Source of the DNA: an uncultured Candidatus Saccharibacteria bacterium
GTDB lineage: Bacteria > Patescibacteriota > Minisyncoccia > Phycocordibacterales > PALSA-1337
NCBI GenBank assembly: GCA_964416985.1
Contig: CAYQFS010000002.1
Coordinates: 1 to 55,154, forward strand
Length of the DNA stretch: 55,154 bases
Direction of reading: 5' to 3'
Part shown: piece by piece, positions 3,257 through 55,154 of the stretch
Numbering within the stretch: the stretch's first letter is position 1
Layout: every line of letters starts with the position of its first letter
Position numbers and translations under genes: made by a program
Notes under the pieces: generated by a model
What the model was told of the DNA's origin: nothing
Seen by the model: only the letters and a program-made list of their open reading frames with translations
Database searches by the model: none

Positions 3257-3922
3257 ATGGAAATAATTCCCGCGATTCTGCCAAAAGATTTTAAAGAAAT
3301 AGAAGAAAAGATTGAGCTCATTACTGGCATGGTGACACGTGTGCAGGTGGATATTTGTGATGGAAAATTTGTGCCGTCAACGACATGGCCGTACAAAAAA
3401 CCGGATTCAAATTATGAGGCAATCCTTCGAGAAGAAAGAGGAATGCCGGAATGGGAGACGATTGATTACGAATTTGACCTCATGATCAAGGATCCAACGG
3501 AGGATGATATGAGAAACTGGCTTTCAGTTGGAGCTGCACGAATTGTTCTTCACGCAGATTCATCTCCTGATCTAACACCTTGTATAAATGTTTTGAATGG
3601 ACTTGCGGAAATCGGCCTTGCATTAAATATAAAAACTCCGATAGATGTAATTGAAAAATATAAAGACAAGATCTCGTATATACAACTCATGGGAATTACC
3701 AAAGTCGGTTTTCAAGGACAGGCTTTTGATCCGAGAGTTCTTTCTAAAATTAAGGAAATAAAAGAAAAGTATCCTGAGATGGTTGTGCAAATAGATGGGG
3801 GAGTGAGTCTTGCGACGGCAGAAGAACTTCGAGATGCAGGAGCGGATCGGCTCATTGTGGGTTCGGCCCTTTTTGGATCTGACAACGTTGTGGATACTCT
3901 CTATCAACTTCAGAGAATCTAA
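3257..3922 (+). CDS. rpe: ribulose-phosphate 3-epimerase
   Basis: IIPAIL, DICDGKFVP, QIDGGV, IVGSALF; context between rpiB and tkt. Confidence 0.88.
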   Translation: MEIIPAILPKDFKEIEEKIELITGMVTRVQVDICDGKFVPSTTWPYKKPDSNYEAILREERGMPEWETIDYEFDLMIKDPTEDDMRNWLSVGAARIVLHADSSPDLTPCINVLNGLAEIGLALNIKTPIDVIEKYKDKISYIQLMGITKVGFQGQAFDPRVLSKIKEIKEKYPEMVVQIDGGVSLATAEELRDAGADRLIVGSALFGSDNVVDTLYQLQRI

Positions 3923-3937
3923 TGGTACAATTATGAG

Positions 3938-4828
3938 ATGAGACCCACGTCGCCTCTCACTGAAGAAAAAGCTCGTGCTCTTTTTGAAAAAGCATATACA
4001 ATTCGACAATCAATTGTCGAGATGCTCATTGAGGCAAAATCAGGTCACACCGCGGGCCCTCTCGACATGGCTGATGTTTTTACCTACCTCTATTTTCACG
4101 CCCTGAAGTACGATGCAAAAAATCCTAAATGGGAATATCGAGATAGGGTTGTTCTTTCGAATGGACATATTTGCCCAGTTTTGTATGCCACAATGGCTCA
4201 CGCTGGATATTTTCCTTTGTCTGAATTAAAAACGCTTCGAAAATTTGGTTCAAAACTTCAGGGTCATCCTCACCGGGAATTTTTGCCAGCTCTTGAAACT
4301 TCCTCAGGTCCTCTTGGTTCCGGTTTGTCACAGGCTGTTGGAATGGCTCTCGCCGAAAGAATGGATTTTGGAAAAACTTCAGGAAAGCAGTTTGTTTGTC
4401 TTACGGGTGATGGAGAACTCGATGAAGGACAAAATTGGGAGGCTATTATGCTTGCAGGAAAAGAGAAAATTCAAAACCTCACTGTTTTTGTCGATCGAAA
4501 TAATATCCAGATTGATGGATTTACCGAAGACGTCATGCCTTTGAATCCTCTTGCAGATAAATGGCGCTCATTCGGCTGGCATGTTCAGGAGGTTGATGGG
4601 CACAATTTTCGCGCTCTCGATGGTGCTTGGACTCAGGCCCTCTCTGTTTTTGACCGACCTTCGGTTATCATTTGCTACACCATTGCCTCAAAGGGTGTTC
4701 CAGAATTCGAACGTAAATATGAATGGCACGGCAAACCTCCGACGACGCCGGAGGAAATAGCCACTGCCCGTTCGGCACTCCATATTGTTAGGACAATGGG
4801 AGGAAAGGTGAAAGGAGAGCATGAATAG
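3938..4828 (+). CDS. transketolase, N-terminal (TPP-binding) subunit
   Basis: SGHTAG, LSNGH, GDGELDEGQNWEA TPP motif. Confidence 0.95.
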   Translation: MRPTSPLTEEKARALFEKAYTIRQSIVEMLIEAKSGHTAGPLDMADVFTYLYFHALKYDAKNPKWEYRDRVVLSNGHICPVLYATMAHAGYFPLSELKTLRKFGSKLQGHPHREFLPALETSSGPLGSGLSQAVGMALAERMDFGKTSGKQFVCLTGDGELDEGQNWEAIMLAGKEKIQNLTVFVDRNNIQIDGFTEDVMPLNPLADKWRSFGWHVQEVDGHNFRALDGAWTQALSVFDRPSVIICYTIASKGVPEFERKYEWHGKPPTTPEEIATARSALHIVRTMGGKVKGEHE

Positions 4829-4867
4829 GTGAATATTTAAAAAGTATTAAATAATAATTAAAATAAT

Positions 4868-5134
4868 ATGAAAAAATTTGAAATAACATTGAAGGTAGGT
4901 TTTATTTTACTTGCGCTTGCACTTATCATCACAGGTCAAGTCAATTCAATGGGGCTCATGATTTTCCTTCTTGTGAGCTTTGCTCTTGGAGGAGTTCTCA
5001 TCTTTAATAAGGATTCGAGCTATAGTCACAAGCACACAAAGAAAGAATTTAAGATTCGAAAACTTGAGGGAGTCATTCTTGTTCTCTTTTCAGTCTTTGC
5101 GTGGTGCTGGCTTACTGGAATCATTGTGATGTAA
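4868..5134 (+). CDS. small hypothetical membrane protein (3 TM)
   Basis: 88 aa with three hydrophobic segments, between the two transketolase halves. Confidence 0.7.
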   Translation: MKKFEITLKVGFILLALALIITGQVNSMGLMIFLLVSFALGGVLIFNKDSSYSHKHTKKEFKIRKLEGVILVLFSVFAWCWLTGIIVM

Positions 5135-5159
5135 ATCTGTCCGGTAATTTTTGTCTGTA

Positions 5160-6161
5160 ATGATTAACCCTGATCAAAAATTAAATCCAAAACTTCTCGA
5201 TCTAAATGTCGAGCAGGTTCCTATCCGAAAAGGCTTCGGAGAGGGACTTTTGATTGCGGGTGATCATGACAAAAACGTGGTGGGACTTTGCGCGGATCTC
5301 ACTGATTCGACTCAGATGCATCTATTTAAAAATAAATATCCTGATCGATTTATCCAGATGGGAGTTGCGGAACAAAATCTCGCCTCAGTCGCTTCTGGAC
5401 TTGCAGCAATGGGAAAGATTCCATTCATAACTTCGTATGCAATGTTTTCTCCAGGAAGAAATTGGGAGCAGATTCGTACAACTATTTGTTACAATGATCG
5501 CCCAGTCAAAATTGCCGGATCTCATGCTGGAATTTCTGTCGGTCCTGACGGAGGAACCCATCAAGCTATCGAAGACCTTGCCATTACTCGAGTCATTCCA
5601 AACATGGTTGTTATCTCTCCTTGTGACGTCATTGAGGCCAAAAAGGCGACTATTGTTTCTGCTCAAACAAAATATCCAACATACATTCGTCTTGCTCGTG
5701 AAAAAACGCCGGTCATTACAACTGATGCAAGTCCTTTTGTAATTGGAAAATCCCAACTTCTTTTTGCTCCGGCACACAACCAGCGAGCCGAAGTGGGAAT
5801 TATTGCAACTGGCGCTCTTGTCTACAAGGCTCTTAAGGTTGCAGTGGATCTCGAAAGGGAAGGAAAGAGAGTCAAGGTTTTGAATCTCTCGACCATTAAA
5901 CCTCTCGATGAGGATGCTGTCTGGCGTCTTGGTCACGAGACAGGAGCCCTCGTAACTGTTGAGGAACATCAGATTATTGGTGGAATGGGATCTGCGGTTG
6001 CCGAATGCGTTGCTCGTCACTATCCTGTTCCGATTGAATTTATCGGAGTCAAAGATAAATTTGGCCAGTCAGGAACACCCGATGAACTCCTCGAGCACTA
6101 TGGAATGGGGGAGAGACATATAAGGGAAGCTGTGAAGAAGGTGCTATTGCGAAAAAAATAG
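5160..6161 (+). CDS. transketolase, C-terminal (pyrimidine-binding) subunit
   Basis: GVAEQN, GPDGGTHQ, VTVEEH motifs; ATG 5160 preferred over TTG 5151. Confidence 0.95.
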   Translation: MINPDQKLNPKLLDLNVEQVPIRKGFGEGLLIAGDHDKNVVGLCADLTDSTQMHLFKNKYPDRFIQMGVAEQNLASVASGLAAMGKIPFITSYAMFSPGRNWEQIRTTICYNDRPVKIAGSHAGISVGPDGGTHQAIEDLAITRVIPNMVVISPCDVIEAKKATIVSAQTKYPTYIRLAREKTPVITTDASPFVIGKSQLLFAPAHNQRAEVGIIATGALVYKALKVAVDLEREGKRVKVLNLSTIKPLDEDAVWRLGHETGALVTVEEHQIIGGMGSAVAECVARHYPVPIEFIGVKDKFGQSGTPDELLEHYGMGERHIREAVKKVLLRKK

Positions 6162-6174
6162 ATTTTGCTATAAT
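6147..6174 (+). promoter_or_regulatory. sigma70 promoter TTGCGA-N16-TATAAT with extended -10
   Basis: TTGCGA 6147-6152, TGC-TATAAT 6166-6174, 7 nt before ATG 6182. Confidence 0.6.
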
Positions 6175-6181
6175 TTTCTCC

Positions 6182-6268
6182 ATGAACATCGTTTCATCAT
6201 ATTCATTCATTAAGACCCTATCAACTAAGACTCTTTCCAGAGTTGGTCTTTGTGATGTATCTCGATAA
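6182..6268 (+). CDS. putative leader peptide (28 aa, MNIVSSYSFIKTLSTKTLSRVGLCDVSR)
   Basis: leaderless uORF overlapping alternative RNA stems upstream of a terminator. Confidence 0.45.
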   Translation: MNIVSSYSFIKTLSTKTLSRVGLCDVSR

Positions 6269-6315
6269 ACGATAAATCCTAAAGACGAGCTCTGGAATAA
6301 CCCAGGGCTCGTTTT
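6227..6315 (+). promoter_or_regulatory. putative transcription attenuator (terminator/antiterminator)
   Basis: terminator stem 6285-6295/6302-6312; competing 16/17-bp helix 6235-6251/6281-6297; local 1:2 stem 6230-6243. Confidence 0.6.
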
Positions 6316-6359
6316 GCAATGATTTGCAAAATTAGTACACCGACAACTAAACCAAAATT

Positions 6360-6641
6360 ATGAGTGGAAAAAATCTACCAGGAGTAACGGTCGAATCCTT
6401 TCCCTTTGATTCTAATAAAAAAATCCTAGAATTTCCGGCTGATGCTCCAGTTTTCAAGACGAAAAGAAAGCCTGCCCGAAGAGATCGAGATCCTGCACCA
6501 AGAATTTCAGGGAGGAATCATTGGCTGATTGTTAATGGTCAATTCCAACTTGTCACATTCACTGGGTCAGTTTGGCGTCCTGTTATGAAGCGCCAGTATC
6601 TGCACCAGCGTTTCCCAGGACTGAATGGTGGCGGCGATTGA
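6360..6641 (+). CDS. hypothetical basic protein
   Basis: 93 aa ORF after the attenuator, A-rich initiation context (AAACCAAAATTATG), followed by a terminator. Confidence 0.6.
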   Translation: MSGKNLPGVTVESFPFDSNKKILEFPADAPVFKTKRKPARRDRDPAPRISGRNHWLIVNGQFQLVTFTGSVWRPVMKRQYLHQRFPGLNGGGD

Positions 6642-6662
6642 CGTTGGTCAGTCTCATTGCAC

Positions 6663-6698
6663 AAAAGCCCGTTTGGATAACCTCCAAGCGGCTTTTTT
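6663..6698 (+). terminator. intrinsic terminator
   Basis: imperfect hairpin aaaagc...tttgga-taacc-tccaag...gctttt with T-tract. Confidence 0.6.
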
Positions 6699-6707
6699 AT
6701 TGCAATT

Positions 6708-6741
6708 AAAAAAACAGCGCATCCACTAAGGATGCGCTGTT
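6708..6741 (-). terminator. intrinsic terminator of ORF 6756-7241
   Basis: perfect 12-bp stem AACAGCGCATCC/GGATGCGCTGTT with plus-strand A-tract. Confidence 0.75.
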
Positions 6742-6755
6742 GTGAAAAAGAGACA

Positions 6756-7241
6756 TTAGGAAGTCCGTTGCCCCAGGACATCCACAATTGTGCTAACGAT
6801 CTGAATTCCCCCATCGGGCGAGTCCAGTCGGGCATGTTTTCTACCGAAGTACACAGTCTGGTCTTCTAGTTTCAGCTGTCGACTGAGTAGTATGTTTCTT
6901 GTGCTCGCATGAGTCACTAGTTCAGTAGCCATTCCGACAAGGCTTGGTACGTGCTCAAGTCGGGTCAGATAAAATGTGCAATGAGCAGCATTTTTTTTGG
7001 GGATGATAATATCCCATACCACCTGGTGATTAGAATTTGGAAGCCATCCTTTGTCGTCCAGGGTTACTTCTACAAAGCACATTAATTTTGATAACGAGCC
7101 CAATGTGGCGAGCATATCTGGTTCGCGAATGTCATTTGCAAGTTTTACCGAGAAACAAGTTGATTTCATAGTATCGGGACAAAGATCCGTACTTCGTGTT
7201 GTTGCCATAGCCATATGGCGCACGAAGAGTTGTTTGATCAA
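6756..7241 (-). CDS. hypothetical protein (start uncertain)
   Basis: 161 aa ORF with own terminator and an upstream TTGACT -35-like element; no recognised family. Confidence 0.6.
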   Translation of the reverse strand: MIKQLFVRHMAMATTRSTDLCPDTMKSTCFSVKLANDIREPDMLATLGSLSKLMCFVEVTLDDKGWLPNSNHQVVWDIIIPKKNAAHCTFYLTRLEHVPSLVGMATELVTHASTRNILLSRQLKLEDQTVYFGRKHARLDSPDGGIQIVSTIVDVLGQRTS

Positions 7242-7311
7242 ATATAACCAAATCTTCTGTAATTAGTCAAGTATTTTAATTTCACTAAATATGAGATTCT
7301 TATAGATAATC

Positions 7312-9405
7312 ATGCCCCTCTTTAAAATCGCAAACGACATGAAGCCGGCTGGTGACCAACCAAAGGCCATCGAAGCCCTTGGAAAAGGCCTCGACAAAGG
7401 TTTGACACATCAGACCCTTTTTGGCGTGACAGGATCAGGCAAAACATTCACCATGGCCAATGTCATTGCAAACCATAACAAACCAACACTCGTCATTGCC
7501 CACAACAAAACGCTCGCGGCCCAGCTCGCTCAGGAGTATCGAGAATTTTTTCCAGACAATGCTGTTCATTATTTCGTTTCATACTATGACTACTACCAGC
7601 CTGAGGCCTACATGCCGGTGACTGATACATATATAGAGAAGGAGGCAATGATAAACGAGGAAATAGAGCGCCTTCGTCATGCTTCAACACAGGCTTTACT
7701 CACGAGAAAAGATGTGATCATTGTAGCGTCAGTTTCGTGCATTTATGGTTTGGGAAGTCCTGAAGAATATGAAAAGGAAAATATGAAGATTGCCGTAGGA
7801 ATGGAATTTTCTCGCTCAGATCTCATCCGGCGCCTCATTGATATTCATTTTGAAAGGACAAATGCAGATATAACCTCGGGAACATTTCGAGCAATTGGAA
7901 ACGTCATCGAAGTGATGCCTGTCAACGAAAAAGTTCTTTACCGAATTGAATATGAGGGAAATACGGTTTCAAAAATTCTTGAACTCGATTCTGTAACCCG
8001 AACGATTCGAAAAGAACCCATAACAGTTTTTATTTTCCCAGCAAAGCATTTTATCAGTACCGATGAGCAGTCAAAGAGAGCATTTAAAACAATTCAAGTC
8101 GAACTCGAAGATCGTCTTGCTGAGCTTGGAAAAGCAGGAAAACTTCTTGAGGCAGAACGACTGAAGAGACGTGTAAAGTACGATCTCGCTCTCATTAAGG
8201 AAGTTGGATATTGCAATGGAATCGAGAATTACTCACGACATTTTTCAGGAAAAGCTCCTGGAGAAGCGCCTGATACGCTTCTTTCATATTTTCCGCACAA
8301 GGCAGATGGTACGCCTGATTTTTTGACAGTGATCGATGAATCGCACGTCACTGTTCCGCAGATCGGTGGAATGTACGCAGGGGACGCTTCTCGAAAAAAT
8401 ACTCTCATTGAGTTTGGTTTTCGTCTTCCTTCAGCACGAGACAATAGGCCGCTTAAATTTGAGGAATTTGAAAAACGAGTTGGTCAGGTTATTTACACTT
8501 CTGCAACTCCAGGGAAATTTGAAAAAGAGAAAAGCGAACAAATTGTTGAACAGATCATTCGTCCGACAGGCCTCATTGATCCCGTTGTTGAAGTGCGACC
8601 AATTATTGAGAATGGCTCGTTCAAAGGTCAGATTTTTGATTTTATCGATGAAGCTGAAAAGGTAATTAAAAAGGGCTTCCGAGTTATTGCCACGACATTG
8701 ACCAAAAAGATGGCAGAGGACCTCAGTGAATTTCTAAAGGAAAAGGGAATCAAAGCCGAGTATCTTCATAGCGATGTGAAAACCATCGATCGAATCACTA
8801 TTCTTACTGATCTGCGAAAAGGAAAGTTTGATGTGATTGTAGGTGTTAATCTCTTGCGAGAAGGTCTTGATCTTCCCGAAGTTGCTTTGATTGGAATCCT
8901 TGATGCCGACAAGGAAGGATTTCTTCGCTCTGAAACGTCCCTCATTCAGATTATCGGTCGAGCTGCAAGAAATATTGAGGGTCGCGTTATTCTCTATGCA
9001 GATCATCGTACCGGTTCCATTGAATACGCAATCAGAGAAACTGAACGCCGAAGAAAAATTCAGACTGATTTCAATACCGCACATGGCATTACTCCAAAAA
9101 CCATTATCAAAAAAATACAGGATATTACCGACCAGCTTCAAACTGAGCACGACAAGGCCGTGAGTGAACTTGTGAAAATTGACGAGGAACTTCTCCGCAC
9201 AAACCCGAAACTTCTCATGAAGCAAAAAAGCAAGGAAATGGAAGAGGCTGTGAAGATTCTTGATTTTGAGACAGCGGCACTTATCCGTGATGAACTACTC
9301 GAACTTGAAGCAAAACTTGAGAAAGAGGAGAAGAGAAAGAAGAAGGAATTAAAGAAAGAAAAGGGGACAGATATACGCAAGAAGAAAGAAGAGTTGAGGG
9401 GGTAA
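7312..9405 (+). CDS. uvrB: excinuclease ABC subunit B
   Basis: GVTGSGKT, AHNKTLAAQL, YYDYYQPEAY beta-hairpin, DESH, QIIGRAARN. Confidence 0.98.
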   Translation: MPLFKIANDMKPAGDQPKAIEALGKGLDKGLTHQTLFGVTGSGKTFTMANVIANHNKPTLVIAHNKTLAAQLAQEYREFFPDNAVHYFVSYYDYYQPEAYMPVTDTYIEKEAMINEEIERLRHASTQALLTRKDVIIVASVSCIYGLGSPEEYEKENMKIAVGMEFSRSDLIRRLIDIHFERTNADITSGTFRAIGNVIEVMPVNEKVLYRIEYEGNTVSKILELDSVTRTIRKEPITVFIFPAKHFISTDEQSKRAFKTIQVELEDRLAELGKAGKLLEAERLKRRVKYDLALIKEVGYCNGIENYSRHFSGKAPGEAPDTLLSYFPHKADGTPDFLTVIDESHVTVPQIGGMYAGDASRKNTLIEFGFRLPSARDNRPLKFEEFEKRVGQVIYTSATPGKFEKEKSEQIVEQIIRPTGLIDPVVEVRPIIENGSFKGQIFDFIDEAEKVIKKGFRVIATTLTKKMAEDLSEFLKEKGIKAEYLHSDVKTIDRITILTDLRKGKFDVIVGVNLLREGLDLPEVALIGILDADKEGFLRSETSLIQIIGRAARNIEGRVILYADHRTGSIEYAIRETERRRKIQTDFNTAHGITPKTIIKKIQDITDQLQTEHDKAVSELVKIDEELLRTNPKLLMKQKSKEMEEAVKILDFETAALIRDELLELEAKLEKEEKRKKKELKKEKGTDIRKKKEELRG

Positions 9406-47205: not shown

Positions 47206-47766
47206 ATGGACGAAAATACTAAAGAAAATAATGAGGAAGTTATAATCGAAGCTGATGAAAACCTTGATGACTCTGTTCTTGCTGAGGAATCAGCACTTGA
47301 GACAGTAAAATCCCTCAAAGAAAAGCTCAAAAAGGCACTTGCAGAAAAGCAGGAATATTTAAATAGCTGGCAAAGGGACAAGGCTGAATTTATAAACGCA
47401 CGAAAAAGAGACCAGGAAGCGCAGAAGGACTTTGCTCGTTTTTCTAATGAAAATTTGATCTCTGAACTCATTCCAGTGCTCGATAGTTTTAATATGGCAA
47501 TGGGAAACAAGGAGGCTTGGGAAAAGGCTGATAAAAATTGGCGAGTGGGTGTTGAGTACATTGCAAATCAGCTCAAGAAAACCCTTGAGGATTTCGGTTT
47601 GAAGGAAATTGATCCTCTTGGAAAGCCATTTGATCCGATGCGAGATGAAGCAATAGAAGACGGGAAGGAGGGTAATCTCGTGACCACAGTCATACAGAAG
47701 GGTTATGAGCTTAATGGAAAGGTGCTCAAGGCGCCGAGGGTGAAGATTGGGGAGGTTAAGAAGTAG
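47206..47766 (+). CDS. grpE: nucleotide exchange factor GrpE
   Basis: RDKAEFINARKR, LIPVLDSF, FDPMRDEA, QKGYELNGKVLKAPRV. Confidence 0.96.
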   Translation: MDENTKENNEEVIIEADENLDDSVLAEESALETVKSLKEKLKKALAEKQEYLNSWQRDKAEFINARKRDQEAQKDFARFSNENLISELIPVLDSFNMAMGNKEAWEKADKNWRVGVEYIANQLKKTLEDFGLKEIDPLGKPFDPMRDEAIEDGKEGNLVTTVIQKGYELNGKVLKAPRVKIGEVKK

Positions 47767-47770
47767 GTAC

Positions 47771-47797
47771 AAAAAATCCGCACTAATGCGGTTTTTT
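47771..47797. terminator. bidirectional terminator
   Basis: AAAAAATCCGCA-ctaa-TGCGGTTTTTT. Confidence 0.75.
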
Positions 47798-47841
47798 GCG
47801 AAGTTTACCTTCGTGGTTTCCCCTTCTCGCTAGATAGATAA

Positions 47842-47870
47842 AGCATAGGCGATCTTGTACATAAAGTCAA
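47842..47870 (-). promoter_or_regulatory. sigma70 promoter TTGACT-N17-TATGCT, no downstream ORF
   Basis: near-consensus hexamers on the minus strand, ~65 nt before the bidirectional terminator. Confidence 0.55.
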
Positions 47871-47887
47871 GAACAATCTTTTTTCCC

Positions 47888-47902
47888 TGTGGACATAGAC
47901 CG
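47888..47902 (+). repeat. attL-like site (core TGTGGA plus P' arm ACATAGACCG)
   Basis: TGTGGA repeated at 55100-55105; arm is an 8/10 inverted match to 55093-55102. Confidence 0.75.
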
Positions 47903-48190
47903 TAAAACATCGAACACCATCAAAATCTTTGTTTTTGAATGGTATCAATTCTTAAATCACCGTAATAACGGGAAAATAACGGTGAAATTGTAGGAAAAAT
48001 TTATTTTTAAGTACCACAATTCTCATATTAGAATTGTATGTATTTCTCTTTCTTCTTGTACTGGCGCGAATTTTTTTCAAAAAGAGCTTTTGCCCGTATT
48101 AGCGGGCAATTAGCGGGTAATGAAAGCTTAATTTTTCTTTAACTAGTGAATCAAGCCTTAAAATGATAAAATCGTATTATAAATGCCTTT

Positions 48191-49813
48191 ATGTTAAAAA
48201 CTTCCGACCAACAATTTAAAGAATGGCTTACTAAACCAGAAGGACTAAATTTAGAGTTCAAAAAAGCGGAGAATAGTTTCAGTGAATCAAAAGATTTGCC
48301 TGATTATTGTGCTGCCCTGGCTAACGAAGGTGGCGGGAAACTAATCCTCGGAGTAACGAATGATAAGCAAATAACAGGCACGAAGGCTTTTGAAGGTAAT
48401 ACAGACTCACTATCTCATAAAATTTTGCAAATCATAAAAATACGAGTAGATGTTGAAGAAACAATTATTGATGATAAACGCATTTTAATTTTTCATGTTC
48501 CAAGTCGTCCTATAGCAACAATAATTAGTTCTGGCGGTGATTATAGATATCCTATGCGGGCAGGTAGTTCTTTAGTAGAAATGACTCAAGAAAAGATAAG
48601 AGAAATTCACAGCGAAACGCAATCAGATTTTTCAACACAGATTGTTCCAAAGTTAGCAATTGATGATATGGACCCGTCAGCAGTCGATACTTTTAAAGCT
48701 CTTTGGGCAAGACAGCAAAACAATGATGAGTACCTTAATTTCTCGATGGAAAAGGTATTGAGTTCAATTCACGTTCTTTCAGATGAAGGAATAAACTATG
48801 CTGGTCTTGTTCTTTTTGCCAAAAGCGAGAAAATAAGCGAATTATTGCCTGGTGCAGAAATTATCTTTGAATGGAGGCAGGAAGAAAAAATAGGGCATGA
48901 CTTTCGTAAAGAATGGCGAGTTCCTTTCTTCTCTATCTTTGATGATATTTGGGCGACTATCAATGCAAGAAACATAAGGTTCCCTTTCCAAGAGGGCTTT
49001 ATACAAAGAGAGGTTTTTGCTTTTAATGAGAAAACTATTCGAGAGGCTGTTTTAAATGCAGTAACACATAGAGACTACAATATTCAGTCACAATCAGTGT
49101 TTATTAAAGCTTCGCCCGAACAATTTTTAATACTAAGTCCTGGTGGTTTTGTAAAAGGCATTACAGCAGAAAATATACTTAATCGTTCCGCTTGGCGTAA
49201 CCGTCGTATTGCAGAAGTGTTGCAAATGGCGGGCTTGGTAGAAAGGGCGGGGCAAGGTATGGATACAATTTTCGGTAATACTATTCGTGAGGGTAAGGGG
49301 GTCCCAGATTTTAGCGGTAGCGATAATGATTGGGTTAGTTTGCATATACCAGCAAAGGTGAAAGATGAACAGTTTATTCTCTTTTTAGAGAAAGTGACAA
49401 ATGACAAACAAATTACTCTCTCCTTTGAAGAAATTTGTGAGCTAGAGAGTATTAGAGAACATCAAAAGGTTACAGATGTCAGTTCAAAAGAGAAATTCTT
49501 GAGTTTGGGAATTATTGAAAAAGTGGGTAGGACCAGTGGGGCAAAATATATTCTTTCTCATAAATGGTATCAATACAAAGAGAGACCAGGTTTGTATACA
49601 AAGATTGTTGGGCTTTCTCGCGAAAAAAATAAAGAACTAATTCTTACTCATCTTATAAAAAATCCTGAAGGAGCAAAAAGTGCTGATTTTCAAGACGCAC
49701 TCGGGCTTGACCAAAAGACGGTTAATAATATGTTACAAGAATTAAAGCAGGAAAATAAAGTTCGATTTGAAGGCGCTAAAGCCTCGGGAAAATGGTTTAT
49801 CGCAAGTAGTTAA
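48191..49813 (+). CDS. AlbA_2/Schlafen-domain ATP-binding protein (RecG-C/HATPase-like plus wHTH)
   Basis: LEFKKA..AALANEGGGKLILGV; IREAVLNAVTHRDY; RNRRIAEVL..GLVERAGQG; C-terminal wHTH. Confidence 0.88.
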   Translation: MLKTSDQQFKEWLTKPEGLNLEFKKAENSFSESKDLPDYCAALANEGGGKLILGVTNDKQITGTKAFEGNTDSLSHKILQIIKIRVDVEETIIDDKRILIFHVPSRPIATIISSGGDYRYPMRAGSSLVEMTQEKIREIHSETQSDFSTQIVPKLAIDDMDPSAVDTFKALWARQQNNDEYLNFSMEKVLSSIHVLSDEGINYAGLVLFAKSEKISELLPGAEIIFEWRQEEKIGHDFRKEWRVPFFSIFDDIWATINARNIRFPFQEGFIQREVFAFNEKTIREAVLNAVTHRDYNIQSQSVFIKASPEQFLILSPGGFVKGITAENILNRSAWRNRRIAEVLQMAGLVERAGQGMDTIFGNTIREGKGVPDFSGSDNDWVSLHIPAKVKDEQFILFLEKVTNDKQITLSFEEICELESIREHQKVTDVSSKEKFLSLGIIEKVGRTSGAKYILSHKWYQYKERPGLYTKIVGLSREKNKELILTHLIKNPEGAKSADFQDALGLDQKTVNNMLQELKQENKVRFEGAKASGKWFIASS

Positions 49814-49983
49814 TAGTAGTTAATAATTGGCACTAAATCTTAAACAAAAGTACTAGTTTAAAGGATAAAAAGTGTCTTAAATAAGTTAAGAATAAGTTGA
49901 GTTTGTTTTAAATGAGGTATGTTTTTTTTAAATGCAAAACATTGTAAAGTGGCCGTTTTTATGGCACAATACTTCTCAATACG

Positions 49984-51192
49984 ATGAACTCGGAAAAGGT
50001 CCAAAAAATTGTAGAGAACATTGGTACTCCCTGCTTTATCTACGACAAAGCGGTTCTTGACCAGAATATACAGAGGGTTTTTACATCTGCTTCTCATCAC
50101 GAATTAAATGAAAGAATAAAAATTTACATCTCATATTTTTCTAATTCTAATCCGGCTTTATTTTCTGAAATTAAGAATGAAAAAATCGGACTCTTACTTC
50201 AAACCGAGGAAGAATGGTACCAGCTTCAGAAAGGGGGTCTTCAGAAAAATATGCTTGTTTCGCCCTCATTTCTTTCTAACGAAGAAATTGATTTTTGGGT
50301 TAGCAAAGGAATTAGAGTAAATCTCGCCTCGCTTGAGGAAGTTCAGTATACATTGGAAAAATACCCAGATTATCCTATCAGCTTTAGGTTGGACTTTACC
50401 TTTTGGCAAAATCAGAGAACAGGAATAAAGAAGAAAGAGCTACCTGCTTTATTAGAAATACTACATAAATACAATAGAAAACCTCACTCATTTCATGTAT
50501 ACGCTGGTACAGGAAGTAGTTTGTCACAGATGAAAAAAGCGGCACAAAGGACACTAAAGCTCTATGAGTCTCATTTCCCTGACGTTGAGGAAATAAACTT
50601 TGGCGGTGGTTTTGGTTTTGACTACACCGCTAAAAAACCAGAGGATAAGCATTTTGATTGGGATAGTTATTTTGCTTTTTTAACCACTCTTATTTCAGAA
50701 AGTAAGGTCCCTAAAAACGTAAAGTTATCTTTTGAGCCAGGTCGTGATTTGTTCGCAGATATTGGAGTTCTTGCGACTAGGGTAAAAAGAGTCCTGAATA
50801 ACAGGTCTGTTTTAGACGTCGCTACTGATAGCTCATTTGTTTATATGCCTTCAGCGACAAAGAGGGCGCGAACTCATCAATTAAATTTTATGAGGGACTA
50901 CAAGATTATGACGGACTTCAGAGCTACAAAAGCTATGTTAAGTGGTTGTACTACTCTCTCAAAAGATTATCTTCTACCTGAAAAGGTTGAGGTACCATCA
51001 GATATAAAAATCGGAGACTTAGTAATCGTAAAAGATGTTGGGGCTTATGGTGCAACGCAACATCTTGAATTTTTGAATAAAAGACCAGCACCGGAAGTCT
51101 TGATAAATGGCGATGAAAACTACTTGATTTCAGAGAGAGGGGCCCTTGAAGATAGGGTACGATATTTGGTTTCTCCCATTAAGAAAATATAA
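49984..51192 (+). CDS. fold-III PLP decarboxylase (LysA/ODC family) homologue, atypical active site
   Basis: GTPCFIYD, INFGGGFG, FEPGR, DVGAYG; YAxKAN motif appears as SYFSNSN. Confidence 0.85.
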   Translation: MNSEKVQKIVENIGTPCFIYDKAVLDQNIQRVFTSASHHELNERIKIYISYFSNSNPALFSEIKNEKIGLLLQTEEEWYQLQKGGLQKNMLVSPSFLSNEEIDFWVSKGIRVNLASLEEVQYTLEKYPDYPISFRLDFTFWQNQRTGIKKKELPALLEILHKYNRKPHSFHVYAGTGSSLSQMKKAAQRTLKLYESHFPDVEEINFGGGFGFDYTAKKPEDKHFDWDSYFAFLTTLISESKVPKNVKLSFEPGRDLFADIGVLATRVKRVLNNRSVLDVATDSSFVYMPSATKRARTHQLNFMRDYKIMTDFRATKAMLSGCTTLSKDYLLPEKVEVPSDIKIGDLVIVKDVGAYGATQHLEFLNKRPAPEVLINGDENYLISERGALEDRVRYLVSPIKKI

Positions 51193-51986
51193 TGAAAATT
51201 GAAGACACAAAACTCTATACATCAGCCGACACCTACTTTGAAGGTCCTGATGGTATGAAAAATGAAGTAGCGATGTGGTACATTGCCTCTGGTTTACTCA
51301 TGAGAGAAATTGCAAAAAGAAAGGGTAATTTACCTTTTGGCGGACTAGGTAAAACACAAGGATATGCCATTACTCCTGACAAAGCTGACACTCTTGATTT
51401 GCTAGACCTTTGTAGCGGTCCTGGTAATTTTGTAAATCACTTAAGCTTTGCTTTTCCCTGGCTCAATGCCGTATGTGTTGATGTGAATGATACTTTCTTG
51501 AAGGCGGGACAAAAGCAGTTTGATAAATGGTCCTTTATCAATGCAGATGTTACAAAGCTTGATTTGGGTAAACAATTTGATTGCGTTACTGCCAGCTCTG
51601 CTTATCACCACATAGAACATAGTCAAAAGATAGATTTCTTAAAAACTATTAAGAAGCACTTGAAGAAGGGTGGTTTTGCTTTGATATGTGAAAACTTCTT
51701 GCCTGAATATTCTTCAGATGAAGAAAGAACTGAAAGCATAAAGCTGTATTACAGCGAACTTATAAGCTACTACAAAGAGGGTAATGCAACAGAAAAATCT
51801 ATTGAGGCTATTGATGAGGTCTTTAAGCTTGAATTAGCCGGAGTGGAAGAACATAAGGTAACAAGAGCTATATTTGAAAAACAGGTGAAAGAAGTGGGAT
51901 TGTCCATAGATATTGATATTGTCGTTTGGCAATCTGAAAAGTTGCGTTCAAGTAATGCAGGTTCGCATGTTTTGGTTTTATCATAG
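51192..51986 (+). CDS. class I SAM-dependent methyltransferase
   Basis: LLDLCSGPG motif I, VCVD, NAD, FDCV.ASSAYHH, LKKGG; TAATG overlap with the upstream gene. Confidence 0.9.
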   Translation: MKIEDTKLYTSADTYFEGPDGMKNEVAMWYIASGLLMREIAKRKGNLPFGGLGKTQGYAITPDKADTLDLLDLCSGPGNFVNHLSFAFPWLNAVCVDVNDTFLKAGQKQFDKWSFINADVTKLDLGKQFDCVTASSAYHHIEHSQKIDFLKTIKKHLKKGGFALICENFLPEYSSDEERTESIKLYYSELISYYKEGNATEKSIEAIDEVFKLELAGVEEHKVTRAIFEKQVKEVGLSIDIDIVVWQSEKLRSSNAGSHVLVLS

Positions 51987-52000
51987 ATAGCCTCGGACCC

Positions 52001-52029
52001 TTGCATTGAATTATACCTCTACGTATAAT
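52001..52029 (+). promoter_or_regulatory. sigma70 promoter TTGCAT-N17-TATAAT
   Basis: near-consensus, 7 nt before ATG 52037. Confidence 0.65.
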
Positions 52030-52036
52030 ATGGGGT

Positions 52037-52852
52037 ATGAAGGAAAAACCTATAGTTATATGCGGTGACTGGTACGACATTGCTTTCGCTAATTTCGTAC
52101 AGAAAGATAAAGAGTTATACGAAAATTACTATTTACTTCTCCAGGTCCCTCGTTATCGTGTCTCTGATACTGATGAAAAATATCGAGTTATAAATTATTG
52201 GGACGAACAAGGCTTGCTCTTGAATGAGCGAGGTAAGACGGACTCGTGGCGCAAGTTTAGTATCCTTGATGTTATTTGGATACGCATACTCCAAACACTC
52301 AAAGAGTACGGCATGGAAGGCGACAAAATTTTACGTCTCAAATCGGACCTATTTCAGGTCCAAGATAAAGAAGGACGATATACGGAGTTTGCTTTCTGGG
52401 TGAATATGGCGCACCACTACAAAGATGTATTTTTGATTGTGTTATCAGATGGCAGAGGGACCATAGCCACAACAACCGACATTGAGTTTCAACAGCTTAT
52501 CGAGCCATTTAAGCAGTCATTTATTTCCGTTGATTTTCGATACATTGTTCGGTCCATTATCTTTCCTAAAAATAAAGGTAAAAAGGTTGTTGAGTTTAAT
52601 CGCAAACTCGATGAGAAAGAAATTGAGCTATTGAACGCACTCTCGAATGTGAACGTTGAGACTGTTACAGCGCATTTGAAGAAAGGCAAGATTGACCGTA
52701 TCGAATGGAAAAGCGTTGAGCAAAACCCTGAACGGCTTTTTGAGATGTTGAGAAAGAAAATTTATGAGTCTCCAAACCAGACCATCACCCTCAAAAGGCA
52801 AGATGGAAAAGTTCTTTTTATAGAGCAGAAAAAGAGTCAGAAATTACCCTGA
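52037..52852 (+). CDS. MerR-family HTH protein
   Basis: YRVINYWDEQGLL...WRKFSILDVIWIRIL..LKEYG. Confidence 0.8.
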   Translation: MKEKPIVICGDWYDIAFANFVQKDKELYENYYLLLQVPRYRVSDTDEKYRVINYWDEQGLLLNERGKTDSWRKFSILDVIWIRILQTLKEYGMEGDKILRLKSDLFQVQDKEGRYTEFAFWVNMAHHYKDVFLIVLSDGRGTIATTTDIEFQQLIEPFKQSFISVDFRYIVRSIIFPKNKGKKVVEFNRKLDEKEIELLNALSNVNVETVTAHLKKGKIDRIEWKSVEQNPERLFEMLRKKIYESPNQTITLKRQDGKVLFIEQKKSQKLP

Positions 52853-52940
52853 CTCGAATAAGGTGACCGAGTAGCGGAGCCATTATATTTCCCGAGACAG
52901 ATGACCGATAAACGGAGTTTGCTCACAAGAAAAATATGAA

Positions 52941-53102
52941 GTGCTTACTCCACAACAAGCTCGGAAGTATCTCAAGAAACGAGACATTTCCGACGAACGA
53001 TTGAAAGTGATACTTGGGTATCTGTACGGATTGGTCGAAACAATGATTAAACAAGAACGAAAAAGCTATGAGCGACATATCAGACAAACAGCACGAGGCT
53101 AA
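52941..53102 (+). CDS. small hypothetical protein (53 aa from GTG; possible frameshifted start)
   Basis: VLTPQQARKYLKKRDISDERLKVILGYLYGLV..., a helical small protein typical upstream of LSRs; not in ORF track. Confidence 0.45.
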   Translation: MLTPQQARKYLKKRDISDERLKVILGYLYGLVETMIKQERKSYERHIRQTARG

Positions 53103-53547
53103 CAAACAAAACGCTCTTTTGGGCGGTGTTAAAACCGACGAGGGTAAGGCTATTTCTCGCTACAACGCCGTACGTCATGGAATTTTGAGAGAAACCATAA
53201 CGGAGTACGAGAAGATAGACCATGAACGCATATTCAACGAGTTTGCCGACTTCTATAAGCCTGAAAATCTCGTTGAGGAAATTCTGGTTGAACGTTTGAC
53301 TGTGGCTTATATAAAAATGGCTCGTGTCTCTCGGGCAGAAAACGAGCTTATGAAAAGTGCTATTGACCCCACGATACCTTTTGGCGAGGGTGTTTCCTAT
53401 TATGAAAAGATTGGATATAAGGTGGTCCTGCCATCGGATAAAGTGACACTACTTTCCGATGTCTATGCTCGATATGAGACTGCTGTAGAAAAGCGTTTCT
53501 ATAGGGCTATGAACACCCTTAATGAGCTTAAAAAGACATACGCATGA
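53068..53547 (+). CDS. hypothetical mobile-element protein
   Basis: GGVKTDEGKAISRYNAVRHG motif; ATGA coupling to the LSR. Confidence 0.75.
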   Translation: MSDISDKQHEANKQNALLGGVKTDEGKAISRYNAVRHGILRETITEYEKIDHERIFNEFADFYKPENLVEEILVERLTVAYIKMARVSRAENELMKSAIDPTIPFGEGVSYYEKIGYKVVLPSDKVTLLSDVYARYETAVEKRFYRAMNTLNELKKTYA

Positions 53548-55139
53548 GTACTAAATCCTCAAAAATGGGTTTGTTTGGTAAAAAGCTCAAGATTGAGGAT
53601 TATGAGTTTGCCCTTAGCTATTGTCGTGTATCTTCAAAGAAACAAGAGCTTGAGGGTAGTGGGCTTGATAGCCAAGAGACCCGAAATGAACAACTCGCAA
53701 AATATCACAAGCTAAAAATCGAGAAAGTTTTTCGGGATACGTTCTCGGGTGGTGGCGATTTCATGAAGCGTCCCGACATGCGTGAGCTTATTGAATATCT
53801 CGACGCACACCCGTACAGAAAATACGTAGTTATCTTTGATGACCTCAAGCGCTTTGCTCGTGACACAAAATTTCACTTTGAGCTTAGGACGGCTCTTGAG
53901 GCTCGCAACGCTTTACCTCTGTGCTCAAACTTTGTCTTTGACGATACGCCCGAAGGTGTCTTTGTCGAGACAATTCAAGCGGCACATAATCAGCTCGAAC
54001 GCGAACAGAATAGACGACAGGTGATAGAAAAGCAGAGAGCATGTCTTGAACGTGGCTATTGGGCTTTTCACTCGCTTAAGGGCTATTCAAAGAGTAAAAC
54101 GAGCATTGGTAAGCGTGATGAGCCTAACGAGCAAAATAAGTACATCAGAGAGCTTTTTGAGGGGTTCTTTTCCGGTCGTTTTCAGCAATTTATTGATGGG
54201 GCACGTTTTCTCAAAGAGACGAAAGTGCTCGGGAAGGCACACCCTGAAAAATATATTGAGACGGTTAAGAGTATTCTCACGCAACCTTTCTACGCAGGCT
54301 TTTTAGAATACCCGAAATGGGAAGTGTCTCGACGACAAGGAATACATGAACCGACTGTCAGCCCTGAATTGTTTGAGGCGGTCCAAAAGAAAATCACCCG
54401 TAACTACAATGTTGTAAAAGTAAGACAAGATATTAACCCTGATTTTCCTTTGCGTGGTTTAGTGAGCTGTGCAGTTTGCAAGAGTAAACTCACTGGCGCA
54501 TGGTCCAAAGGCAAAAAACAATTGTACCCGTATTACTTTTGTCAGAATAAAAAGTGTCCGCTCAAGAGTTCTGTTATCCGAAGGAAGGACCTCGAAGATA
54601 AATTCGAGGAGCTCTTGCAGAAGATGACAACCGACGACGATATTATCGAGCTCGCAAAAGCTGTTTTCATTGACGCAAAAGAAACTGATGAAAAAGAGTC
54701 AGTTTTGGAAAAGAAAACGTATGCCAAGCGAAAAGAAGAATGTGAGGCTGATATTGAAAACTATATGGAGCGTGCCGGTAAAGCCAAGGTCCCGTCAGTG
54801 ATTGCTCAATACGAAAAGAAAATCGAGAAGTTGGCGGCCGAACTTGAACAATTGGAGTCAGATAGCCTTGCCGAGTACGACTATGGCGTACCTTATCGAA
54901 CAGCCTTGGACAAAGTAATGGGCGTGCTTAAAAACCCTTATCCTACTTGGGCGGAGTTCGATGTTTTCGGGCAACAGAAGTTCTTTTCATTCCTTTTTGA
55001 GGTGAATTTAGAGTACGACAAAAAAGAGGGTTATCGAACACCAAAATATACAGTCCTTAAAAGGGTTTTAGAGGAAATTGAGTCCTCTGGCTCGGTTGAT
55101 GTGGAGATGACGGGAGTCGAACCCGCAAACCCCAGCTAG
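53544..55139 (+). CDS. large serine recombinase
   Basis: YCRVSS catalytic Ser, DDLKRFAR, recombinase domain, zinc ribbon CAVC...YYFCQNKKC, coiled coil. Confidence 0.95.
   Translation: MSTKSSKMGLFGKKLKIEDYEFALSYCRVSSKKQELEGSGLDSQETRNEQLAKYHKLKIEKVFRDTFSGGGDFMKRPDMRELIEYLDAHPYRKYVVIFDDLKRFARDTKFHFELRTALEARNALPLCSNFVFDDTPEGVFVETIQAAHNQLEREQNRRQVIEKQRACLERGYWAFHSLKGYSKSKTSIGKRDEPNEQNKYIRELFEGFFSGRFQQFIDGARFLKETKVLGKAHPEKYIETVKSILTQPFYAGFLEYPKWEVSRRQGIHEPTVSPELFEAVQKKITRNYNVVKVRQDINPDFPLRGLVSCAVCKSKLTGAWSKGKKQLYPYYFCQNKKCPLKSSVIRRKDLEDKFEELLQKMTTDDDIIELAKAVFIDAKETDEKESVLEKKTYAKRKEECEADIENYMERAGKAKVPSVIAQYEKKIEKLAAELEQLESDSLAEYDYGVPYRTALDKVMGVLKNPYPTWAEFDVFGQQKFFSFLFEVNLEYDKKEGYRTPKYTVLKRVLEEIESSGSVDVEMTGVEPANPS
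55093..55105 (+). repeat. attR-like site (P arm CGGTTGATGT plus core)
   Basis: core TGTGGA 55100-55105 inside the LSR ORF. Confidence 0.75.
55102..55126 (-). other. tmRNA/tRNA-Ala-like 3' end fragment (T arm, acceptor 3' strand, discriminator)
   Basis: GCGGG-TTCGACT-CCCGT-CATCTCC-A; upstream bases lack the GGAC or anticodon arm expected of an intact gene. Confidence 0.65.
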
Positions 55140-55154
55140 CGAGAAGGAGTTCCA

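Follow-up and report, generated by a model that had tools for sequence, protein, structure and literature searches.

Why should two sequences that lie 7.2 kb apart, one beside grpE and the other at the border of an integrated island, be exact reverse complements of each other over 12 bases? The question is raised by the end of the window, i.e., the whole stretch of 55,154 bases analysed here, which corresponds to positions 1-55154 of contig C2 of G000, a 0.74-Mb Candidatus Saccharibacteria genome (PALSA-1337; 96.5% complete; contigs C1, C2, etc.). Contig C2 extends past the window to 145,650 bases. The analysis pointed to a pair of RNA genes, here called the short RNA and the mimic, the latter being a tRNA-like gene of 70 nucleotides (nt). 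The reading that we favour, with a probability of about 0.6, is that the mimic is conserved together with a dedicated antisense RNA, that this short RNA sequesters or limits the folded mimic, and that the island split the two genes in G000.

The inverted repeat and its two predicted RNA genes

On the plus strand, CCTTCTCGCTAG (47822-47833) was the exact reverse complement of CTAGCGAGAAGG (55136-55147), and an extension by two bases on the minus strand, which is the transcribed one, gave CCCCTTCTCGCTAG versus CTCCTTCTCGCTAG, i.e., 14 pairs including one G:U, in agreement with the 12-base-pair (bp) repeat, extendable to 14 bp, of the original prediction. The minus-strand arms are CUAGCGAGAAGGGG on the left (47833 to 47820) and CUCCUUCUCGCUAG on the right (55149 to 55136). 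When the contig was followed past position 55154, as that prediction had suggested, the complementarity went on with a second block of 7 bp, AAACCAC (47819 to 47813) with GUGGUUU of the mimic (contig positions 55160 to 55154), separated from the first block by a 4-nt bulge, and the tRNA-like gene was completed at 55171. The predicted duplex of the G000 short RNA and mimic reached -39.8 kcal/mol.

By arithmetic, any particular 12-mer should occur about 0.09 times on the two strands of a 0.74-Mb genome, and the best antisense run in the 300 nt downstream of each of the 41 canonical tRNAs of G000 was 6-10 nt long, as compared to 14 nt for the mimic; a chance origin of the repeat is thus excluded. 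The sole strong match of the seed of the short RNA in the G000 genome was the mimic itself. The inverted repeat is neither a product of chance nor the end of an element. It was not among the 25 longest of the 157 inverted pairs detected by a repeat search. The features of the two genes are as follows:

47771-47835, minus strand: putative short RNA gene, about 65 nt (sequence, fold, promoter and terminator scan).
47842-47870, minus strand: predicted promoter of the short RNA, TTGACT (47870 to 47865), 17-nt spacer, TATGCT (47847 to 47842); scan, 9/12 match.
47813-47833, minus strand: seed of the short RNA, in which CUAGCGAGAAGGGG pairs with the loop and 5' stem strand of the mimic and AAACCAC with its D-arm region.
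47778-47791, two-way: predicted intrinsic terminator stem, common to the short RNA (minus) and grpE (plus); scan.
55102-55154, minus strand: the 3' 53 nt of the 70-nt mimic, whose whole gene covers contig positions 55171-55102 (Rfam, fold; 88.4 bits with covariance model R1).
55136-55154, minus strand: target of the short RNA in the mimic, CUCCUUCUCGCUAG (55149 to 55136), i.e., the 5' stem strand and loop, and, from 55154 on, the second block, GUGGUUU, which extends past the window.

Promoters and terminators were called by consensus scan. On the minus strand the scan recovered TTGACT-17-TATGCT, the promoter that the original prediction had placed at 47842-47870. The same prediction had described a short RNA beginning with the repeat, followed by a CGAAG/CTTCG hairpin and a terminator, and fold and terminator scan agreed with it: the RNA is predicted to have a single-stranded 5' end, the CGAAG/CUUCG hairpin, GCAAAAAA, a terminator hairpin and a U run (47776 to 47771). 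The neighbouring grpE gene ends at 47766 on the plus strand (GrpE domain, Pfam). Rfam gave no match for the short RNA. Seed, middle hairpin, GCAAAA and terminator follow one another in the homologous short RNAs of relatives, which are 62-77 nt long at 19 of the 21 loci listed; the remaining two, at which no T run was detected, are given as 95 nt. A promoter of the TTGAC[A/T]-N16-17-TAnnnT type preceded them at 20 further loci, with a weaker -35 hexamer at four, and the middle hairpin was kept at nearly all loci. The sequence of this hairpin, with its GGUA-type loop, and the following GCAAAA were alike only in many of five short RNAs that were aligned.

The module in relatives, its covariation and the tRNA-like fold

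A BLAST search with the mimic region revealed, in the island-free relatives G033 and G029 (G numbers other than G000 denote genomes of relatives), a mimic followed on the same strand by TTGAC(A/T)-N17-TA(A/G)ACT, a short RNA and a terminator. The arms were again complementary though different in sequence (CCUUCUCACCAG/CUGGUGAGAAGG in G033 and ACCUCCUUUCGUCAG/CUGACGAAGGGAGGU in G029). In island-free relatives they lay about 90-100 nt apart, with the short RNA usually about 60 nt downstream of the mimic. The empty site reconstructed for G000 placed the two arms 90 nt apart by hand count, which corrects the spacing of about 115 nt given in the original prediction; its general picture of the empty site was borne out by the relatives. 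Of its two options, a trans-pairing RNA gained support from the same layout in the island-free relatives and from arms that change together locus by locus. The other, ends of an older element, did not hold, given that the repeat is present where no island is, and that its mismatches are of a kind tolerated in RNA (20 G:U versus 1 C:A).

Model R1 (alignment A1), built from the tRNA-like RNA including leader and trailer, was used to search 45 genomes of the genus and 151 genomes each of the order, class and phylum. In the genus, 20 strong places (46-122 bits) were found in 15 of the 45 genomes. Further copies occurred in other families of the order (G128, G076, G135, two in G142, G042, G102, and G188), in another order (G303, class search) and in another class (G369, phylum search). 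The total, taken without the weaker genus matches (<42 bits) and the order-level places G142:C1:71117, G075:C3, and G188:C3, was 30 mimic copies, 24 of them with a cognate short RNA. Among the 20 genus copies, 18 have the short RNA downstream, as do those in G128, G076, G135, and G303, and in G188 it lay between two mimic copies. The other R1 matches that were read were ordinary tRNAs with long leader-trailer helices. Public contigs matching the family pattern were titled Candidatus Saccharibacteria or Patescibacteria group, and none of 22 leader-pattern matches in viral contigs matched R1, so that carriage by phages was not seen. Judged from sequence, the mimic and the short RNA form an RNA module of two genes that is conserved among Saccharibacteria-like Patescibacteria.

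No conserved protein neighbour was found at the 20 module loci, whose flanks are housekeeping genes. Aminoacyl-tRNA synthetase genes adjoin six of the 20, G025 and G006 sharing one TatD-MetRS neighbourhood, and synthetase genes (MetRS, SerRS, Leu/Ile-type, ArgRS, Asp/Lys/Asn-type, AlaRS) or tRNA-modification genes (MiaA, RluA) adjoin eight. The copy at G369:C2:16327-16432 (minus strand) has a direct, not inverted, copy of the arm, GCCCCGACTTGTC, about 60 nt downstream, and no antisense partner was found there.

The pairing itself was tested with a short-RNA segment set by the promoter alone, from 4 to 36 nt past the -10 hexamer. Cognate duplexes had a mean of -34.9 kcal/mol versus -20.6 (standard deviation 5.1) for non-cognate ones, and the cognate partner ranked first of 21 for 17 of the 21 mimics. 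Of the 21 mimics, that of G000 had the best predicted duplex with the G000 short RNA, and among the paralogues, four in G033 and three in G065, the cognate was best in every row. In a fixed ungapped register, arm positions 38 to 27 (numbered by tRNA analogy) paired in 248 of 252 cells, with the 20 G:U cells and the single C:A cell mentioned above; three, two and two pair types were seen at positions 36, 35, and 34, and four to five at the stem positions. Similar results were obtained with alignment A3, a plain MAFFT alignment of 20 empty-site loci and 15 pairs in which four rows are off by at least one column, which counts against structure: 85.2% of the cells were paired as compared to 68.2% in shuffles, none of 500 shuffles reached the observed score, 13 of the 15 pairs had changed on both sides, and slid registers paired 43-58%. 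The covariation of the two repeats, a check that the original prediction had suggested, is therefore strong, and complementarity kept by compensatory change is what is expected of an antisense pair. Because the arms covary with G:U in place of C:A mismatches, selection appears to act on RNA-RNA pairing; this asymmetry fits selection at the RNA level and not homogenisation of a DNA repeat. The complementarity spans 12-30 nt of the 5' end of the short RNA and covers the loop, the 5' stem strand and often the D arm of the mimic, and in many members it runs on through the D arm over about 30 nt (approximately positions 8-38).

The cloverleaf was the minimum-energy fold of the G000 mimic. It has an acceptor stem of 7 bp (GGGGAUG/CAUCUCC, with G3:U70 and A73), a D stem of 4 bp that abuts the acceptor stem directly and carries a 5-nt GG loop, an 'anticodon' arm with a 6-bp stem and a 12-nt loop region containing CUCGCUA, and a canonical T arm. 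Across the family, mimics are 67-71 nt long, with no linker at positions 8-9, a D loop of 4-5 nt and an arm of 6-9 bp. On A3 the acceptor stem was 98.6% paired, with four covarying pairs, the T stem 100% and the D stem 81%. Pair 3:70 was G:U in 17 and G:C in 3 of the 20 rows, and the neighbouring pairs covaried freely; by reading, G3:U70 was present in 26 of 30 copies and A73 in all copies parsed. The mimic thus has the sequence traits of an alanine acceptor (7-bp stem, G3:U70, and A73), and mimic acceptor stems were identical to that of the tmRNA (transfer-messenger RNA) of their own genome in G000 or of its tRNA-Ala in G025.

The stem of the 'anticodon' arm was only 74% paired on A3, and its loop-proximal pairs were open in 8-13 of the 20 rows, which suggests an accessible landing site for the short RNA; the intermolecular pairing was kept better than this intramolecular stem. 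The 7-nt loop is of the U-turn type, Y-U-NNN-C-A, with C at position 37 in 26 of 28 loops read by eye (U in G000, G in G021), as compared to a purine in the canonical tRNAs of G000 that were checked by eye from the set of 41. Its triplet was CGU, CAU, CGA, CAC, UAC, CGC, UGU, CAA, UGC, or UGA, and it differed among close relatives, even at syntenic places (TatD-mimic-MetRS in G025, G017, and G006; HolB-mimic in G033a and G011). A canonical tRNA-Thr(CGT) was found alongside a CGU-loop mimic in three of five genomes searched (G001, G061, and G065), and G000 has a full canonical tRNA set, with alanine read by tRNA-Ala(UGC) only. Since the canonical decoders coexist with it, the mimic is not a required decoder. 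A mimic with so long an arm and with C37 would hardly decode normally, and its acceptor stem speaks for alanine charging.

CCA is not encoded in the mimic. At empty-site loci a leader-trailer helix of about 18 bp prolongs the acceptor stem, and it covaries in the G033d/G017/G036 variant; this helix must come off before a mature CCA end could form. It is not a general feature of tRNA precursors in G000, none of the 41 canonical tRNAs having one.

In other Patescibacteria, ordinary tRNA genes (Ser, Leu, Pro, Ala, and others) were seen flanked by inverted repeats of 15-20 nt that would form a leader-trailer helix, and behind several of them lie partial duplicates of the 3' half of the gene (e.g., G375 and G319). 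One tRNA, at G415:C2:64462-64578 (minus strand), combines the tmRNA-type GGGGATG/CATCTCC stem (G3:U70) with a normal D arm and a leader-trailer helix, and its anticodon loop, TTATCAA, does not hold an alanine anticodon.

The original prediction had taken the right arm to lie next to a tmRNA-like 3' end. The partner is instead an independent and complete tRNA-like gene, and the true tmRNA of G000 is on another contig (C1:109672-110087, 98.9 bits). The Rfam tmRNA model gave only 18 bits for the 3'-end match in the window (55099-55154); genome-wide, the match was a 73-nt element (55171-55099). The model matched both ends of mimics, with the middle missing, at 25-42.7 bits, under its gathering score of 47 bits. 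With 70 nt, no tag frame, no pseudoknots, scores of 18-43 bits and a tmRNA elsewhere, the mimic was rejected as a tmRNA. As a canonical tRNA it was rejected on its non-standard dimensions, the absence of a purine 37, the variable triplet and the redundancy of the decoder; ARAGORN called no mimic in G000 and one of five others scanned, the G001 copy, as tRNA-Thr(cgt).

The serine-recombinase island and a putative promoter cassette

The 7.2 kb between the two genes in G000 are occupied by an island, with the following features:

47894-55099, no strand: integrated island of about 7.2 kb (open reading frames, Pfam, junction identity with islands at tmRNA sites).
48191-49813: AlbA_2/Schlafen-type and HATPase_c_4 protein, 540 amino acids (aa) (Pfam).
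49984-51192: weak pyridoxal phosphate (PLP)-decarboxylase-like protein (Pfam).
51192-51986: methyltransferase (Pfam).
52037-52852: MerR-like protein (Pfam).
53068-53547: open reading frame of 159 aa without a Pfam family.
53544-55139, plus strand: large serine recombinase, with Resolvase, Recombinase, and Zn_ribbon_recom domains (Pfam).
55100-55105, no strand: attachment (att) core TGTGGA on the mimic side, overlapping the last four bases of the mimic.
47871-47893, minus strand: displaced 3' trailer of the mimic, TCCACAGGGAAAAAAGATTGTTC, including the att core at 47888-47893 (from the trailers of relatives).

The three recombinase domains, together with the short core TGTGGA at both junctions (47888-47893 and 55100-55105), identify the element as an integrative island of the large serine recombinase type. 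The island-side junction ...CATCTCCAC|ATCAACCGAGCCAGAGG... was identical to the one seen in G035 and G003, where islands sit at the tmRNA 3' end, and related to that in G014; in G000 the tmRNA site itself is empty. On the far side of the island the host sequence restarts as TCCACAGGGAAAAAAG (minus strand), which matches the trailers standing directly behind the mimics of relatives, where the trailer follows the 3' end of the mimic and pairs with the 5' leader. The acceptor stem of the G000 mimic equals that of its tmRNA, which suggests that the island used a look-alike site. Evidently, from these junction sequences, it landed on the tmRNA-like end of the mimic and split an older RNA module, so that 7.2 kb now separate the mimic from the short RNA and the pairing trailer is cut off.

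Contigs assembled from DNA reads covered both island junctions in one run, possibly the source sample. A direct junction of mimic and short RNA was absent from the contigs of the four DNA-read sets, the sole joint being a skip (3574 to 7914) with sides of 22 nt, and no inversion of the 7.2-kb segment was seen in those contigs. In the integrated state the recombinase frame extends beyond the att core into the mimic, which is on the opposite strand, and has 531 aa; with the ends joined it would have 553 aa. The att site thus lies inside its 3' end, and integration swaps the last 34 codons of the 553-aa frame for 12 from the antisense strand of the mimic. The AlbA_2 and HATPase_c_4, methyltransferase and MerR-like genes resemble a small defence or regulatory cargo.

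A cassette of about 70 nt was found in at least eight copies in G000 (82-90% identity) and also in many relatives of the genus, with the consensus cTTGACA..GAyTTTATCAAAACTTTATTTATTTTTTATCAGGATTTTATCTCG..TGnTAnnGT. It stands before protein genes and before the mimic, where one copy lies just past the window (C2:55200-55271); the others are at C7:487-558, C1:80853-80923, C4:5314-5382, C1:45040-45116 (minus strand), C3:95078-95142, C1:160086-160155, and C1:179291-179331. Its motifs, among them two GATTTTATC boxes and an extended -10 element, suggest that the cassette serves these genes as a common, strong promoter. Behind the copy on C1 at 160086-160155 there is a second tRNA-like sequence (about 160160-160240), GCCGGAG…GGGTTCGAATCCC…CTTCGGC, which was called neither by ARAGORN nor by Rfam (E≤0.1).

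Weighing the readings, and comparison with known systems

The proposed action of the short RNA is antisense sequestration of the mimic. Its free 5' end would nucleate on the exposed U-turn-type loop of the mimic, as in the RNA-IN/RNA-OUT pair of IS10, and pairing would then zip through the stem and the D arm to a duplex of 12-30 bp. Such a duplex would unfold the D and anticodon arms, leaving the acceptor/T minihelix alone, and would probably be a substrate of RNase III. The short RNA would thereby set the amount of correctly folded, probably alanine-chargeable mimic. In G000, an island of the family found at tmRNA 3' ends evidently attached itself at the acceptor end of the mimic, which is tmRNA-like. 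G000 encodes RNase III, RNase P RNA, a CCA-adding enzyme and AlaRS. Transcription, pairing in trans, cleavage by RNase III, alanine charging and the cellular role are all inferred. We also considered, as a speculative extension to which we attach a low probability, that the module is a conflict or control system made of RNA only, in which the alanine-charged mimic acts on the ribosome or on the charging machinery and each copy is checked by its own antisense RNA. If so, the mimic might insert alanine at the wrong codons, or it might be taken up by stalled ribosomes much as a tmRNA without a tag would be, and the pair would be an all-RNA analogue of a toxin-antitoxin system, or of regulated mistranslation, with fast-evolving and insulated specificities.

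Several readings compete with that of a dedicated antisense RNA. Both arms could be parts of one transcript of about 230 nt from the upstream promoter, in which the seed folds back on the anticodon arm as a long-range pseudoknot and no separate regulator exists. The tandem layout (22 of 24 partner RNAs are encoded right behind the mimic, in the same orientation) would suit this reading, as would the single terminator after the short RNA and the lack of an intrinsic terminator seen between the genes. It is nevertheless unlikely: a sigma-70-type promoter is conserved in front of the short RNA although its spacer sequence is variable, the complementarity begins 7-8 nt past the -10 hexamer at most loci (6-10 nt across all 21), and the covarying leader-trailer helix closes the mimic as a unit of its own. 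Moreover, the gene order is reversed in G142, where the upstream short RNA is set off from the mimic by a terminator of its own, and in G000 the arms are far apart, each with a predicted promoter. The roles could also be reversed, the mimic being a sponge or an antisense regulator in the manner of RNA-OUT and the short RNA the effector, with further targets of its own or with a protein that its 3' hairpin would contact. The mimic is indeed highly structured and stands behind the strong promoter cassette used elsewhere in the genome, and the retained middle hairpin of the short RNA could be explained in this way. However, the seed varies by locus and between orthologous loci, therefore any third target would have to change along; the mimic is the only strong genomic match of the seed in G000, and hand reading of the listed loci revealed no consistent reading frame across the short RNAs. 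We consider such a reversal doubtful. Far less probable than either, and in our view close to negligible, is a signal at the DNA level, i.e., a recombination or inversion site of the island recombinase or a relic terminal repeat, which would account for arms that flank a recombinase-bearing island in G000. The same repeat occurs at short distance in island-free relatives, its mismatches are almost exclusively G:U on the transcribed strand, and the junctions of the island are elsewhere, at the TGTGGA core.

Certain observations do weigh against the antisense reading. For five mimics (G017, G006, G042, G102, and G369) no partner was found; the contigs of G017, G042, and G102 are short or end nearby, G006 retains only the 3' end of the short RNA, and a search for distant partners of the G042 and G017 mimics gave only unconvincing matches. 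In the duplex test, four of the 21 mimics ranked their cognate below first, one of them (G017) through a false promoter call with no partner RNA, and a high background complementarity of non-cognate pairs results from the composition of the arms, one being rich in pyrimidines and the other in purines. The alanine identity is not universal, with G3:C70 in four of 30 copies. In G000, the mimic without its trailer may be misprocessed or inactive, and the intact complementarity could merely reflect a recent insertion. The start sites, ends and processing of both RNAs are inferred from consensus. A read-through transcript holding both arms, and hence pairing in cis, is possible since most loci have no terminator between mimic and short RNA. 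On sequence, either partner may be the regulator, and the gene neighbourhood points to no phenotype or protein partner.

A number of further candidates were rejected. A two-piece or permuted tmRNA is contradicted by a short RNA with nothing 5' of the seed and no stop-ended frame before the terminator, and by the presence of a normal tmRNA. As a leaderless or Shine-Dalgarno-led mini-mRNA, the short RNA has no conserved starts, frames or stops (hand reading). A T-box-like leader was discarded as the next gene is convergent at most of 20 loci and co-oriented only in G001, G021, G036, G076, G128, and G303, and Shine-Dalgarno/anti-Shine-Dalgarno mimicry as a GGAG-type core was seen by eye in only about 15 of 24 seeds. 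A role as alanine donor for Fem-type cell-wall transferases did not hold: G000 lacks FemAB, and the four genomes in which it was found, among the 45 of the genus, all lack a strong mimic copy. A Y RNA was rejected on the lack of a TROVE/Rsr protein match in G000 (at its 96.5% completeness). Finally, the module does not belong to the type I toxin-antitoxin systems because no peptide is encoded: by hand reading, neither RNA has a conserved frame, and frames from the first nucleotide stop at codons 7-13 in five loci, with no stop at the others.

No tRNA-like RNA with an antisense partner was found in Rfam 15 or in the open full-text literature on Patescibacteria/Saccharibacteria, and no description was found of a natural, co-evolving antisense RNA whose sole conserved target is a tRNA-shaped, alanine-type RNA. 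The module would add two unannotated RNA genes to very small Saccharibacteria genomes, and it suggests that integrases aimed at tmRNA can hit a mimic and split an RNA-RNA partnership. As its sequence rules are clear and the covariation is strong, the family is directly testable.

Antisense RNAs control mRNAs, plasmid primers and transposase messages. In the RNA-IN/RNA-OUT pair of IS10, antisense pairing begins by contact of a 5' end with a loop, and fast recognition follows a U-turn loop rule. The module resembles this pair in that a linear 5' end would meet a 7-nt YUNR-type loop and spread down the stem strand, and in that a dedicated partner is encoded nearby. It differs from it in that the looped partner is a whole alanine-type tRNA shape, neither RNA is an mRNA, and the genes are in tandem instead of overlapping on opposite strands. 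The bacterial Y RNA YrlA has a tRNA-like module, and its ends form the Ro-binding stem on the anticodon side. The mimic is likewise a non-coding RNA with tRNA-like T and D arms, whereas its ends prolong the acceptor stem. With the tRNA-like domain of tmRNA and with tRNA-Ala it shares G3:U70, A73 and the T arm, and the same island family attaches at tmRNA and at the mimic; in contrast to tmRNA, it has only 70 nt, no frame or pseudoknots and an unlike D region.

The Sib/Ibs type I family is described (PMC2943612) as having several paralogous pairs per genome, with repression by the cognate only and swappable recognition domains. The module paralogues in G033 and G065 similarly prefer their own partner, although, as compared to the Sib/Ibs pairs described there, the module has no toxin peptide and its target is a tRNA-like RNA. 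According to another report (PMC7609411), the M. alvus tRNA-Pyl and the mitochondrial tRNA-Ser(UCN) are tRNAs with a compact core, and the mimic shares with them a linker of 0-1 nt between acceptor and D stem, a D loop of 4-5 nt, a long anticodon stem and a very short variable region. Like the mitochondrial tRNA-Ser(UCN) of that account, it also keeps G18 G19 and T-Psi-C, but its arm is longer (6-9 bp), it has C37 and an 'anticodon' that varies by copy, and a canonical decoder coexists with it. The action proposed here for the short RNA is that of synthetic antisense oligonucleotides, which are reported (PMC6158751) to bind a chosen folded tRNA tightly when directed to the anticodon-arm region and to abolish its activity. 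Those oligonucleotides were engineered and acted in vitro on real tRNAs, whereas the module appears natural, genetically linked and co-evolving.

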